Of a stretch of DNA of 64,000 bases, positions 58,101 to 64,000 are shown piece after piece. A program made the position numbers. The stretch comes from Escherichia coli (GTDB lineage: Bacteria > Pseudomonadota > Gammaproteobacteria > Enterobacterales > Enterobacteriaceae): NCBI RefSeq assembly GCF_013122565.1, contig NZ_CP053258.1, one strand, 5' to 3'. Position 1 is the stretch's first letter. Each line of letters begins with the position of its first letter.

Positions 58101-61100
58101 AAATCCGCCAGTGGATTATCGACACTCCCTTCCAGCCTGAGCTGGAAAACGCCATCCGCGAAGCCTATGCACAGCTTTCCGCCGATGACGAAAACGCCTC
58201 TTTTGCGGTACGCTCCTCCGCCACCGCAGAAGACATGCCGGATGCTTCCTTTGCCGGTCAGCAGGAAACCTTCCTCAACGTTCAGGGTTTTGACGCCGTT
58301 CTCGTGGCAGTGAAACATGTATTTGCTTCTCTGTTTAACGATCGCGCCATCTCTTATCGTGTGCACCAGGGTTACGATCACCGTGGTGTGGCGCTCTCCG
58401 CCGGTGTTCAACGGATGGTGCGCTCTGACCTCGCATCATCTGGCGTGATGTTCTCCATTGATACCGAATCCGGCTTTGACCAGGTGGTGTTTATCACTTC
58501 CGCATGGGGCCTTGGTGAGATGGTCGTGCAGGGTGCGGTTAACCCGGATGAGTTTTACGTGCATAAACCGACACTGGCGGCGAATCGCCCGGCTATCGTG
58601 CGCCGCACCATGGGGTCGAAAAAAATCCGCATGGTTTACGCGCCGACCCAGGAGCACGGCAAGCAGGTTAAAATCGAAGACGTACCGCAGGAACAGCGTG
58701 ACATCTTCTCGCTGACCAACGAAGAAGTGCAGGAACTGGCAAAACAGGCCGTACAAATTGAGAAACACTACGGTCGCCCGATGGATATTGAGTGGGCGAA
58801 AGATGGCCACACCGGCAAACTGTTCATTGTGCAGGCGCGTCCGGAAACCGTGCGCTCACGCGGTCAGGTCATGGAGCGTTATACGCTGCATTCACAGGGT
58901 AAGATTATCGCCGAAGGCCGTGCTATCGGTCATCGCATCGGCGCGGGTCCGGTGAAAGTCATCCATGACATCAGCGAAATGAACCGCATCGAACCTGGTG
59001 ACGTGCTGGTCACTGACATGACCGACCCGGACTGGGAACCGATCATGAAGAAAGCATCTGCCATCGTCACCAACCGTGGCGGTCGTACCTGTCACGCGGC
59101 GATCATCGCTCGTGAACTGGGCATTCCGGCGGTAGTGGGCTGTGGTGATGCAACAGAACGGATGAAAGACGGTGAGAACGTCACTGTTTCTTGTGCCGAA
59201 GGTGATACCGGTTACGTCTATGCGGAGTTGCTGGAATTTAGCGTGAAAAGCTCCAGCGTAGAAACGATGCCGGATCTGCCGTTGAAAGTGATGATGAACG
59301 TCGGTAACCCGGACCGTGCTTTCGACTTCGCCTGCCTGCCGAACGAAGGCGTGGGCCTTGCGCGTCTGGAATTTATCATCAACCGTATGATTGGCGTCCA
59401 CCCACGCGCACTGCTTGAGTTTGACGATCAGGAACCGCAGTTGCAAAACGAAATCCGCGAGATGATGAAAGGTTTTGATTCTCCGCGTGAATTTTACGTT
59501 GGTCGTCTGACTGAAGGGATCGCGACGCTGGGTGCCGCGTTTTATCCGAAGCGCGTCATTGTCCGTCTCTCTGATTTTAAATCGAACGAATATGCCAACC
59601 TGGTCGGTGGTGAGCGTTATGAGCCAGATGAAGAGAACCCGATGCTCGGCTTCCGTGGCGCGGGACGCTATGTTTCCGACAGCTTCCGCGACTGTTTCGC
59701 GCTGGAGTGTGAAGCAGTGAAACGTGTGCGCAACGACATGGGGCTGACCAACGTTGAGATCATGATCCCGTTCGTGCGTACCGTAGAGCAGGCGAAAGCG
59801 GTGGTTGAGGAACTGGCGCGTCAGGGGCTGAAGCGTGGCGAGAACGGGCTGAAAATCATCATGATGTGTGAAATTCCGTCCAACGCCTTGCTGGCAGAGC
59901 AGTTCCTCGAATATTTCGACGGCTTCTCAATTGGCTCAAACGATATGACACAGCTGGCGCTCGGTCTGGATCGTGACTCCGGCGTGGTGTCTGAACTGTT
60001 CGATGAGCGCAACGATGCGGTGAAAGCACTGCTGTCGATGGCGATTCGTGCCGCGAAGAAACAGGGCAAATATGTCGGGATTTGCGGTCAGGGTCCGTCC
60101 GACCACGAAGACTTTGCCGCATGGTTGATGGAAGAGGGGATCGATAGCCTGTCTCTGAACCCGGATACTGTGGTGCAAACCTGGTTAAGCCTGGCTGAAC
60201 TGAAGAAATAAAATAAATCCCCGGCGGCGTTTTGTCGCCGGGTTTATGTGATCCCCGAAGATGAAACTTATTCAATCTCTTCACAGACATCCTGAGTTAA
60301 CCGCCGCATAATATCTTTTCTTAACAAAAACTTTTGTATTTTACCTGAGGCAGTGCGCGGTAGTTTTTCGATTACCACGATATGTTCAGGATATTTATAT
60401 TTTGCGACCCGTTTACGGCTAAAAAAAGCCACCACCTCTTCCAGCGATAATGAATGATGCGGCGCTTTCAGCACGACATAAGCGCATGATCGTTCACCTA
60501 AACGTTCATCGGGCATTGCAACCACACAGGCATCGTGAATTTTAGGATGCTGCAATAAAATATCTTCTACTTCACGGCTGCTAATATTTTCGCCGCCGCG
60601 GACAATAATATCTTTTTTGCGTCCGGTAATTTTTATATAGCCAGCCTCATCCATACGGCAGAGATCGCCACTGTAATACCAGCCTTCTTCATCCAGCGCA
60701 TGGGCGGTTAATTCAGGTTCATCAAAATACCCCATAAACACATTGGGGCCACGCGAGGCTTCTTCACCTTCGCAACCTGGCGGTAAGGTCTTGCGTGCGT
60801 CATCGACCACTTTAATCTCTACACCTGCGGCAGCGTAACCATCGGTGTGCATAAAGCGCGACAAAGGATCATCGAGATTCACCACCGCATGCGGCGAACT
60901 TTCTGTGGAACCATAAACACTTAATAATTTAATGCCGCGCTGCTGGCATTCGCGCGCCACTTTTTTGGGGATTGTGGTACCACCGCAAAGAAAGAAGCGC
61001 AGCGCTGAAAGGTCTGCGGGTTGTTTCTCTAGTAAATTCAAAAGATCATAGACAAACGGTGTTGCGCCGAGCATACAGGTGCAACGCTGCTGCTCAAGCA

Positions 61101-64000
61101 GCGCGAGACACGCATCAGGAGTGAAAATATCTAACAACACGCTGCGAGCACCAATCAAAAATGGTGCTGTTACGCCATGCAGAAAGCCCGTTGCGTGGCC
61201 GAGTGGTGCAGGCATCATAAAGACATCCTGCCAGGTCAGATTCAGCCGCGCGCAATAAGCCCGCTCACTGGCGAGAATATTGTTATGCGTTAGCATCACG
61301 CCCTTTGGCAGACCCTCTGTTCCGGAGGTAAACAGCACCGCAGCTAATTCATCGCCGTGGGTCGTTATCGCCGTGGTCAGTGGGGTATTGTCGGCGATAA
61401 TCTGACTTAATGAGAGGGAAGAGGTGGCGGGAGCCAGTTTGTCCACGCCGACAATTTGTTGTAGTTGTGGAAGCTGATTTTGCAGCGGCAGGATTAAATC
61501 TACCGGACGCGTTTGTTTAAACAACGTCGGTGCAAAGAACATTTTTGCCTGACACTTATTAAGCACCCATACCAGTTCTGCTTCCCGCCAGGAAGGCAAC
61601 AGCGGTACGGAAACCGCACCGATTTTCAGGCAGGCAAGATAGATAACGGTAAATTCACACCAGCCTGGCAGTTGAAATGCGATGCGATCGCCTGATTCAA
61701 TACCCTTCGCTAACATCCAGTTTGCCAGACAGCTCGCGGCGTGATCGAGCACGCTATAGGTGTACGATGCACCATGATTATCGACCACGGCAATTTTGTC
61801 TGGCATCGCACGAGCGGTCTGCTGCCAGTAATCGGCCAGCGAAGCATCGCCCCATAGCCCTTGCTGACGATACGCCGCACGACGTTGTTCGTTAAACGTT
61901 AATGTCACTTTCATTTTGGACTCTCGAAACAGAACATCAGGCCCGAGATGCGGGCCTGTGGGATGCATGATTAGCCGTAGCGAAAATCAATACCGAAGGT
62001 GCCTGCGGGATATTGCCACTGTTCGAGAATAGTGTTACCGCACAGCACCCGACAGGTGCCGCACTCCAGACAACCGGCAGAATCAAAATGAATGTTGCCG
62101 GCGTCATCCTGCTTATAAAGTCCGGCAGGGCAGGCTTTCATTAATTTACGGAATTCATTGATATCGGGATTTTCCGCCAGAATGATATGCGGGTGGCCCT
62201 CATCAACATGGAATTTATTGACGCCTAATTTGATGTCGACGTTAACCGTAGCGTTCTGGCTCATAGCGCGGTTGCTCCCTTAATGCCATCTTTCAGCAAG
62301 TTGATCAGCCCAATTTTCTTCGCGTGTCCCATGATCATTTTGCGTACCGGCTGGTTAGGTTTGCCGTCGATGGTGAACATCTCGTTCATGATGTCGGCTA
62401 CCATTCGTGGGTATTGGCTAAACAGGCGCGGGTTTTCCATCAGCGCCGGGATCTTGCGAAAATGCTGCATATCACGCATGACGCAGCTTTGTTCCAGCTC
62501 ACATTTGTATTGCGCCAGACTGCTGGCGGAGAAATCCGCGCGTTCTTTGGCGGCGATCACCGTTGTGGCGGCAGCCTGAGCCGATGCAATGGCTAAATCC
62601 ATACCGCGGACCGTAAAACCCAAATTCAGGCAGAAGCCTGCGGCGTCACCAACGATCATCACGCCATCGTTAACCAGTTGCGGCACCATTGCCAGACCGC
62701 CCTCCGGCACCATATGCGCGGAATATTCAAGCAGTTTGCCGCCGCTAATCAGCGGGCGAATGGCGGGGTGTTGTTTAAAATCTTCCAGCATTTGCGGCAC
62801 GCTTTTTTGCGCATGGGCGATATCACCCAATCCACAAACCAGCCCCAACGATATGGAATCCTTATTGGTATAGAGGAATCCGCCACCCATCTGGCCGTCA
62901 GAAGGGGAACCAGCAAACAGCCAGGCGGCACCTTCCTCGCCCGTAATATTAAAGCGATCGTTGATCTGTTCTGGTGTGAGGCCAATAACCTCTTTAACAC
63001 CAACAGCGTAATGATGCGGATCGGAAGCGGGAACCATTCCCAGCGAACGGCCAAGCATCGAGTTAACGCCATCAGCCAGAATCACCACATTCGCTTCGAG
63101 AATATCATCCCCGGCCTGGACTCCAGTGACCTTGTTTCCTTCACGAACCAGCGCATCGACGCGAACGCCTGGGATAAACTGTGCGCCCGCCTGCTCGGCT
63201 TGTTCCATCAACCACGGGTCCAGACGATTACGCAATACGGTATAAGATGCGTGTTGCGGAACATCTGGTTGCTCGCGGTGAAAATCGAGGGTAACGGCGC
63301 TCTCTTCGGTTAAGAAGGAGATTTTCTCGCGTGTGACCTTGCGTTCTACCGGCGCTGATGCTGCAAAGCCTGGAATGATTGCTTCAAGGGTGTGGGCATA
63401 AAGACGCCCGCCGGTCATGTTTTTACATCCGGCACTGTCGCCGCGTTCTATCACCAGGACATCCAGCCCGGCTCGTGCCATGACCAGTGCGGCAACGCTA
63501 CCAGCAACGCCCGCACCGACCACAATGGCATCAAATTTGTCATCCGACATGCGTTATGCTCCCTTCCCGCTGCGTTTACAGCGGGAGATGTGGTTGAAAG
63601 GGGAATTAGCGGCTCAACTGGCTAATCAGGGCAGGGACGACTTTGTAGATATCGCCCACCAGACCGTAGTCGGCATAATTGAAGATTGGCGCATTTTTAT
63701 CTTTATTGATGGCGACAATCACTTTTGCGCCGTTGCCGCCAACCATATGCTGGATCTGCCCGGAGATCCCCAGCGTCAGGTAGAGATCGGATTTCAGCAA
63801 CACGCCGGAGACACCGATATAACGTTCACGCTCCATCCAGTTCTCGCCTTCGGCAATTGGACGTGAACAGCCGACTTCAGCATTCAGCACCGCCGCCAGT
63901 TCGTGGATCATTTTCAGGTCATCCTGCGCCGCCAGACCACGACCGACGCCAACCACACGTTTTGCTTTGCTCAGGTCCACGCTGCTTGCCGCTTTCGCAC

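Follow-up and report, generated by a model that had tools for sequence, protein, structure and literature searches.

Several described systems pass electrons between an acyl-CoA dehydrogenase (ACAD) and an electron-transfer flavoprotein (ETF). In mitochondria and proteobacteria, electrons flow from the ACAD to the ETF and then through the single [4Fe-4S] cluster and the FAD of an ETF:quinone oxidoreductase (ETF-QO) to quinone. The four-subunit EtfABCX of Thermotoga maritima (7KOE) and FixABCX of Azotobacter vinelandii represent a membrane-associated, quinone-reducing system with bifurcating ETFs. A ligase, a CoA-transferase and a single ACAD together make up a CoA loop around one redox step, as in the Cai/Fix system of Escherichia coli (caiTABCDE and fixABCX) and the caffeate system CarABCDE of Acetobacterium woodii, the latter of which uses a priming AMP-forming ligase. 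Here we compare these systems with the ydiQRST-fadK operon of E. coli, a well-known and already described operon, the 3′ part of which lies at positions 60268-64000 of a 64,000 nt stretch of contig NZ_CP053258.1 (hereafter the window). All the genes in this region are intact, and the locus is a core, annotated locus of E. coli.

We put the chances at about even that FadK, the acyl-CoA dehydrogenase YdiO and YdiQRST form a simple, non-bifurcating chain from ACAD through ETF to quinone, working oxidatively in the annotated reading. FadK would convert a free medium- or short-chain carboxylate and ATP into an acyl-CoA thioester, and YdiO, which is encoded just upstream and outside the window, would carry out the two-electron redox step at the α,β bond. 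Electrons would then pass from the FAD of YdiO to the ETF YdiQ/YdiR, which would hold one electron-transfer FAD, and via the single [4Fe-4S] cluster of YdiT and the FAD of YdiS to the (mena)quinone pool. YdiS would be membrane-associated and would constitute, together with YdiT, a split ETF-QO. According to the annotated reading, the chain would run in the oxidative direction as the first step of anaerobic β-oxidation with nitrate respiration. The gene identities, their integrity, the cofactor motifs and the gene order are direct observations; the electron path, its direction and the substrate are inferred. The split ETF-QO is proposed because YdiS carries a quinone-binding domain of the ETF-QO type (ETFQO_UQ-bd), YdiT fits one cluster, and the motifs of bifurcating complexes are missing.

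Gene content and cofactor motifs

The open reading frame (ORF) listing of positions 57000-64000 gave ppsA (57833-60211) on the plus strand, followed by four minus-strand frames. The features of the region are as follows.

60268-61914 (stop codon included), minus strand: fadK, AMP-forming medium/short-chain acyl-CoA ligase, 548 aa from the conserved Met (MKVTLTFN...)
61915-61970, minus strand: ydiT-fadK spacer of 56 nt, with an 8-bp GC hairpin at 61938-61958 and 18 non-conserved codons at 61915-61968
61971-62264, minus strand: ydiT, 97 aa, FixX-type ferredoxin-like subunit
62261-63550, minus strand: ydiS, 429 aa, FixC-type FAD-dependent ETF:quinone oxidoreductase
63565-63586, minus strand: ydiR-ydiS hairpin, 9-bp stem and 4-nt loop, inside the 55-nt intercistronic spacer
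63606-64000, minus strand: 3′ part of ydiR, ETF alpha (large) subunit, C-terminal 130 codons (FAD-binding domain) and stop codon
60220-60242, both strands: hairpin shared by ppsA and fadK, GC-rich, with T-runs on both strands

The ydiR gene is cut by the end of the window, with its 130 C-terminal codons inside; as the window ends there, ydiQ and ydiP of this genome are outside view. E. coli genome annotations give identical gene names in the identical order (ppsA, fadK, ydiT, ydiS, ydiR). A first-pass annotation of the sequence had read the minus strand as fadK-ydiT-ydiS-ydiR with ydiT and ydiS overlapping, encoding an AMP-forming acyl-CoA synthetase, a ferredoxin-like protein with a CxxCxxC motif, an FAD oxidoreductase with a GxGxxG motif and an ETF alpha subunit. 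The ORF listing, the curated profiles and a 4-nt overlap (ATGA) between ydiS and ydiT agree with this reading, and each of the four products was recovered with its motifs, as detailed below.

With 1087 bits, FadK exceeded the cut-off of 736 for NF004758, the NCBIfam equivalog for medium-chain fatty-acid--CoA ligase; residues 19-565 of the long ORF align with profile positions 1-547 of 548. The protein contains the Pfam domains AMP-binding (295 bits) and AMP-binding_C. As signatures of adenylate formation we looked for a P-loop of the form [ST][ST]G[ST][TSE]GxPKG and for the C-terminal catalytic Lys; both are present, in TSGTEGLPKG at residue 196 and in SGKIQK at residue 523 (548-aa numbering). 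YdiS scored 971 bits against NF007450 (cut-off 466), carries the FAD-fold motif G12-x-G14-x-x-G17, and matches DAO/FAD_binding_3 as well as PF21162 ETFQO_UQ-bd (38.9 bits against a cut-off of 27.7) in Pfam. Its best solved relatives are chain C of 7KOE (E 1e-70) and, more distantly, the pig ETF-QO 2GMH (1e-24). The YdiR fragment gave 296 bits against NF008884 (the full-length cut-off being 528), is complete over profile positions 183-312 of 312, and scored 100 bits against 27 for Pfam ETF_alpha.

The best solved relative of YdiT is chain D of 7KOE (E 9e-15). Against the FixX equivalog NF011993 it reached 143.4 bits, under the cut-off of 166, and by this measure YdiT is a FixX paralog and not FixX itself. 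Its cysteines are arranged as C45-P and C65-x2-C68-x2-C71-x3-C75. C45-P, C65, C68 and C71 are kept in all 80 YdiT/FixX orthologs examined, and these four residues suffice for one predicted [4Fe-4S] cluster. The extra C75 is conserved in YdiT orthologs (n=40) and absent from FixX, which has four cysteines only.

The start codon of fadK deserves correction. The longest ORF, 60268-61968, encodes 566 aa and has the same start as the K-12 annotation, whereas PGAP annotates fadK as 548 aa, the PGAP start in strain EC5 mapping to window position 61914. The Met of MKVTLTFN is kept in orthologous loci, reading M-[KST]-[VI]-T in other genera. Three other Escherichia species have a Thr codon in place of the upstream ATG, and in-frame stops occur 1-8 codons upstream of the conserved Met in other genera. 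We rejected the 566-aa start at 61968, because other loci, even those of other Escherichia species, do not conserve the 18-codon extension. Judged from these alignments, fadK most likely starts at 61914 (548 aa) and not at 61968; with that start, the ydiT-fadK spacer is therefore 56 nt. In orthologous loci this spacer varies in length between 41 and 247 nt. The Citrobacter spacers (loci L008-L012) are full of REP-like palindromes of the GCCGGATAAGGC type.

Conservation of the ydi block

By megablast against 5426 complete E. coli genomes, the stretch was matched in 5422, and at least 80% of it was matched in one place in 5372; the alleles here are somewhat divergent, and the best match over this stretch among these genomes has 98.7% identity. 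Compared with K-12, gene order, strand relations, the 4-nt ydiS/ydiT overlap and all gene lengths are equal, and each gene shows 4-35 nucleotide differences, mainly synonymous, and 1-7 amino-acid changes, with nucleotide identities of 97.9-98.7%. FadK differs at 6 residues within 548 aa, and the 130-codon part of YdiR at one. Equal lengths and few amino-acid changes indicate that the genes are intact and under purifying selection. In fifty of the 5422 matching genomes no contiguous match reaches 80%, and the locus is therefore disrupted now and then. In strain PRO_A-1462-6M-A (NZ_CM136166.1), the matching segment is annotated with an IS1A element and, separately, with an 'AMP-binding enzyme', an arrangement suggestive of IS1 having inserted within fadK or next to it.

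A scan of one genome per species yielded 80 loci, which were annotated by tblastn with the K-12 proteins. In K-12 and strain EC5, ydiQ (ETF beta) lies 19 nt upstream of ydiR, and beyond it are the divergent AraC-type regulator gene ydiP and then ydiO, ydiF, aroD, ydiB and ydiN. The order ydiN-ydiB-aroD-ydiF-ydiO-ydiP(<)-ydiQ-ydiR-ydiS-ydiT-fadK is found in every Ydi-type locus that is long enough (~30 loci in ~10 genera; L003-L044). The genera with Ydi-type loci are Escherichia, Citrobacter, Kosakonia, Intestinirhabdus, Yersinia, Brenneria, Symbiopectobacterium, Serratia, Prodigiosinella and Dickeya. The first-pass annotation had predicted ydiQ and ydiP upstream, with a missing ETF beta gene or a different gene order as grounds for refutation; in K-12, in EC5 and throughout these loci, ydiQ directly precedes ydiR and ydiP is divergent. 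Only Escherichia, Citrobacter and Intestinirhabdus have ppsA as the next gene after fadK. When the fadK-side flanks of Yersinia, Dickeya and Kosakonia were searched for pathway genes of the hydratase or thiolase type, only unrelated genes were found. Because the order is invariant while the fadK-side flanks differ between genera, fadK is, on this synteny, the conserved 3′ boundary of an eleven-gene block that moves as a unit across Enterobacterales. The quinate/shikimate genes ydiB and aroD always accompany the ETF and ligase genes in Ydi-type loci.

A third paralogous cassette, besides ydi and cai/fix, is present in Phytobacter, Citrobacter youngae, Edaphovirga and Budvicia (L031, L032, L034, L036, L038). 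It encodes an AraC regulator, a family III CoA-transferase, an MFS transporter, two ACADs, ETF beta and alpha, FixC, FixX, a second MFS transporter and a FadK-like ligase, and this terminal ligase is 65% identical to FadK. None of the three cassettes contains a thiolase, and a hydratase is found in neither the ydi block nor the third cassette; the cai operon carries the hydratase CaiD.

Weighing the possible roles of YdiQRST and FadK

The four-subunit composition of YdiQRST is like that of EtfABCX and FixABCX. YdiQRST might be a bifurcating complex of this type, which would oxidise NADH at a second, bifurcating FAD and send one electron to quinone, via YdiT and YdiS, and the other to ferredoxin or flavodoxin, or which would drive YdiO by confurcation in reverse. 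Metabolic-engineering models have treated YdiO-YdiQRST as ferredoxin-linked. YdiS and YdiT are closest to chains C and D of the bifurcating 7KOE, and the ETFs of bifurcating complexes (5OL2, 7QH2, 6FAH) give YdiR and YdiQ marginally higher scores than human or Paracoccus ETF does. The features of group-2 bifurcating ETFs are, however, missing from YdiQRST. These are an RPxFGG motif, the arginine of which abolishes ferredoxin reduction in T. maritima when mutated, and GxxSPTxV in the other ETF subunit (PMC10734219); moreover, T. maritima EtfX has two [4Fe-4S] clusters, both of which are required for a stable holoenzyme (PMC10734219). In place of RPxFGG, all 37 YdiR orthologs examined have EHR(M/L/F/V)(Y/F)GG, with EHRMYGG in YdiR and KHMVYGG in FixB, and a HMMER alignment with the bifurcating Clostridioides difficile EtfA (5OL2_A) puts a histidine of YdiR in the column of the essential arginine. 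This comparison was made on K-12 and its orthologs, as that part of ydiR lies outside the window. A pattern search, which is not a structural alignment, found G..SP..[VIL] in 0 of 38 YdiQ and 0 of 40 FixA orthologs, and the nucleotide-binding stretch of YdiQ reads GSGDLYAQQVG against AIDGDTAQVG in CarD and 5OL2_B. With 5 cysteines, where T. maritima EtfX has 9, YdiT would fit one cluster, not two; the first-cluster cysteines are missing in 40/40 YdiT orthologs. Because none of the three features was found, we consider bifurcation quite improbable and do not file YdiQRST as a member of the bifurcating group. The non-bifurcating chain follows the same logic as the mitochondrial and proteobacterial ETF with ETF-QO, except that its iron-sulfur part, YdiT, is a small protein of its own and not a fused domain, and that YdiQ and YdiR are only distantly related to canonical group-1 ETFs. 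It is also far more probable than the suggestion that fadK is a mere neighbor, a second general acyl-CoA synthetase independent of ydiQRST whose adjacency has no functional meaning, to which we assign very little weight. The hairpin-bearing 56-nt spacer after ydiT, long and variable in other genera, means that fadK could have its own regulation, and FadK has been suggested to complement the chain-length range of FadD (PMC9329746). Yet in every long-enough Ydi-type locus fadK is the next gene after ydiT, on that strand, while the gene downstream of fadK varies by genus; a related ligase ends the sister cassette, caiC accompanies fixABCX, and a genomic SELEX table gives ydiQRST-fadK as a single transcription unit. 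Synteny thus gives strong support to the link between the ligase and the ETF/ETF-QO module that had been claimed from the window alone.

The paralogous Cai/Fix system raises a further possibility, that the ydi block is a reductive CoA-loop cassette of the Cai/Fix or caffeate kind. FadK would only prime the loop, by forming the first CoA thioester of an α,β-unsaturated carboxylate other than a fatty acid, YdiF would move CoA from the product to fresh substrate, YdiO would reduce the enoyl-CoA, and YdiQRST would run in reverse, supplying YdiO with electrons from quinol. Candidate substrates are a hydroaromatic acid such as shikimate or a quinate-derived cyclohexene carboxylate. We find this doubtful overall, though the likeness of the modules is extensive. 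In relatives, the ydi block comprises the whole Cai/Fix-type set of ligase, CoA-transferase, ACAD, ETF beta and alpha, FixC/FixX, transporter and regulator, of which the ligase, FixX-type, FixC-type and ETF alpha genes lie in the window, and the third cassette repeats the design. Identities between the paralogs range from 29% to 62% (YdiQ-FixA 56%, YdiR-FixB 45%, YdiS-FixC 61%, YdiT-FixX 62%, FadK-CaiC 29%, and 48% between YdiO and CaiA, annotated as crotonobetainyl-CoA reductase). In both operons the FixC- and FixX-type genes overlap by 4 nt and a GC-rich hairpin follows the ETF alpha gene, ahead of the FixC-type gene, and the lack of a thiolase is common to all three cassettes, with the hydratase missing from two. 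In contrast to cai/fix, genes for a CaiD-type hydratase and for CaiE are lacking from the ydi block, the ligase gene of which stands at the end of the ETF operon, the fifth conserved cysteine is confined to YdiT, and YdiF, annotated as an acyl-CoA:acetate/3-ketoacid CoA-transferase, is unlike the family III enzyme CaiB. The caffeate system has the same gene set (CoA-transferase, ligase, ACAD-type enoyl-CoA reductase and ETF) at low identity. Among solved proteins, YdiQ is matched best by CarD of the caffeyl-CoA reductase complex, with matches to CarE and CarC as well, but the Car system is devoid of a FixC/FixX quinone module and its ETF is bifurcating. As to the substrate, ydiN (transporter), ydiB (quinate/shikimate dehydrogenase) and aroD are linked to ydiF...fadK in ~10 genera with differing flanks, and the second-best NCBIfam match of FadK is cyclohexanecarboxylate-CoA ligase. 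Furthermore, ydiQ, ydiR, ydiS and ydiT were significantly upregulated in growth-phase comparisons of a shikimate-overproducing strain, ydiB, aroD and ydiN were upregulated in another such strain, and other gut bacteria respire shikimate, an enoate, to hydroshikimate. This support for a substrate other than a fatty acid is circumstantial throughout: aroD is a housekeeping biosynthetic dehydroquinase whose adjacency may be inherited order without functional meaning, and the expression data compare growth phases, not the presence and absence of shikimate. FadK, on the other hand, has measured activity on fatty acids, highest on C6-C8 for the K-12 enzyme, and a fadD fadK double mutant is unable to use fatty acids (PMC9329746). 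The more specific proposal, that the block is a third CoA-loop enoate-reduction system of Enterobacterales, acting on a cyclic α,β-unsaturated acid with quinol electrons running backwards via YdiST-YdiQR, draws on the same analogies and appears to us unlikely, more so than the general one.

The oxidative, non-bifurcating chain has its own difficulties, which weigh against it at several points. Its non-bifurcating character is predicted from motifs, and besides the relevant part of ydiR all of ydiQ lies outside the window. The nearest solved relatives of FadK are aryl-acid (salicylate, dihydroxybenzoate) adenylating enzymes and not fatty acyl-CoA synthetases. The ydi block includes the CoA-transferase gene ydiF but no gene for a hydratase, a hydroxyacyl-CoA dehydrogenase or a thiolase and, as judged from gene order, its place alongside ydiN-ydiB-aroD is unlike that of a β-oxidation cassette. 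A 2022 review states that no ETF system for growth on fatty acids has been identified and that YdiQR was proposed only from its proximity to fadK, for which 'experimental evidence is lacking' (PMC9329746). The same review questions the anaerobic role of FadK, noting that transcriptomes have not shown anaerobic induction of fadK and that no control of it by FadR or CRP is known (PMC9329746). In tests of reverse β-oxidation, deletion or overexpression of YdiO had minimal effect on butyrate production (2026 review), and the y-ome paper regards ydiO as poorly supported. The solved-structure relatives of YdiO are generic short-chain ACADs, which do not discriminate between an oxidative and a reductive role. 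A 2016 paper in the Russian Journal of Genetics assigns ydiO and ydiQRST, in its title, to an ACAD complex of anaerobic β-oxidation, and a review citing it calls the importance of YdiQRST for catalysis unclear.

In view of this review literature, of the support from the 2016 paper by its title and of the minimal effects of YdiO, it is too strong to call the gene set the known arrangement for anaerobic fatty-acid utilisation, as the first-pass annotation had done; that wording rests mostly on gene proximity. For ydiQRST-fadK, a role in the anaerobic use of fatty acids has been proposed but not established. The accompanying caveat, that electron acceptor and substrate range are incompletely defined, was correct.

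Intercistronic hairpins, flanking features and implications

The hairpin at 63565-63586 folds with -21.5 kcal/mol (z = -4.0) and ends immediately before the Shine-Dalgarno sequence of ydiS, AAGGGAG. It recurs in orthologs with differing stem sequences: in an alignment of 21 sequences, 95% of the cells are paired and 5 of the 9 pairs show compensatory changes, values that were reached by 0 of 500 shuffles, and controls with a slid register collapse. The fixB-fixC spacers (L045-L082) contain a hairpin of unrelated sequence at the equivalent place, with compensatory changes at 8/8 pairs. Structure, and not sequence, is thus conserved for the hairpin between the ETF alpha and FixC-type genes in the ydi and fix operons across Enterobacterales (seen also in L083 at 11130-11181). 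The ydiR-ydiS hairpin matched no Rfam family, and no U-run follows it in E. coli. We infer that it may serve as an mRNA stability barrier or a translational-coupling element that would set the ratio of ETF to FixC/X.

At the position of this hairpin, some Yersinia, Brenneria and Prodigiosinella (L020, L023, L024, L028) carry highly structured inserts of 108-134 nt, and sister Yersinia species (L021, L033) have a 31-41 nt ydiR-ydiS spacer without a hairpin. Such differences look as if a palindromic repeat element had been inserted or lost.

At the other end of the region, ppsA and fadK are convergent, with stop codons at 60211 and 60268, and a single hairpin (60220-60242) stands between them. 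It folds with -19.5 kcal/mol on the plus strand and -16.5 kcal/mol on the minus strand and is likely a shared two-way intrinsic terminator, as judged from its sequence. An Rfam search of positions 56000-64000 (E <= 1) returned no match. The terminator scan gave 5 sites against 4.9 expected and the promoter scan 6 against 3.8, neither of which is an enrichment, and no promoter is claimed. The plus-strand ORFs within ydiS and fadK (e.g. 62678-63313) were dismissed as chance antisense ORFs, because minus-strand genes with strong family matches account for every base.

Over the whole window, identity is 97.7-99.0% with the best of the 5426 complete E. coli genomes, 94.8% with Escherichia sp. E1V33 and ~93% with E. 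whittamii. By these values the source appears to be a lineage of the E. coli group that has no close counterpart among those genomes, possibly a Shigella or a divergent phylogroup. Under positions 25001-50000, matching E. coli genomes annotate espL1, a type III secretion effector gene, amid the housekeeping genes pheT, thrS, katE and tcyP.

As a sequence feature, the region is ordinary, and its interest lies in the physiology of the ydi block and not in the sequence of the window. For annotation it yields two modest gains, the revised start of fadK and the conserved hairpin between ydiR and ydiS. YdiQRST and YdiO have been widely put into metabolic models and reverse β-oxidation designs as a ferredoxin-linked enoyl-CoA reductase system. 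The single cluster, the lack of bifurcation motifs, the Cai/Fix-like design and the quinate/shikimate linkage suggest that there is little foundation for modelling it as dependent on ferredoxin, and that its physiological substrate could be something other than a fatty acid. If the enoate-reduction reading were true, the ydi block would represent an unrecognised anaerobic electron sink of E. coli for hydroaromatic acids derived from plants and microbes in the gut.

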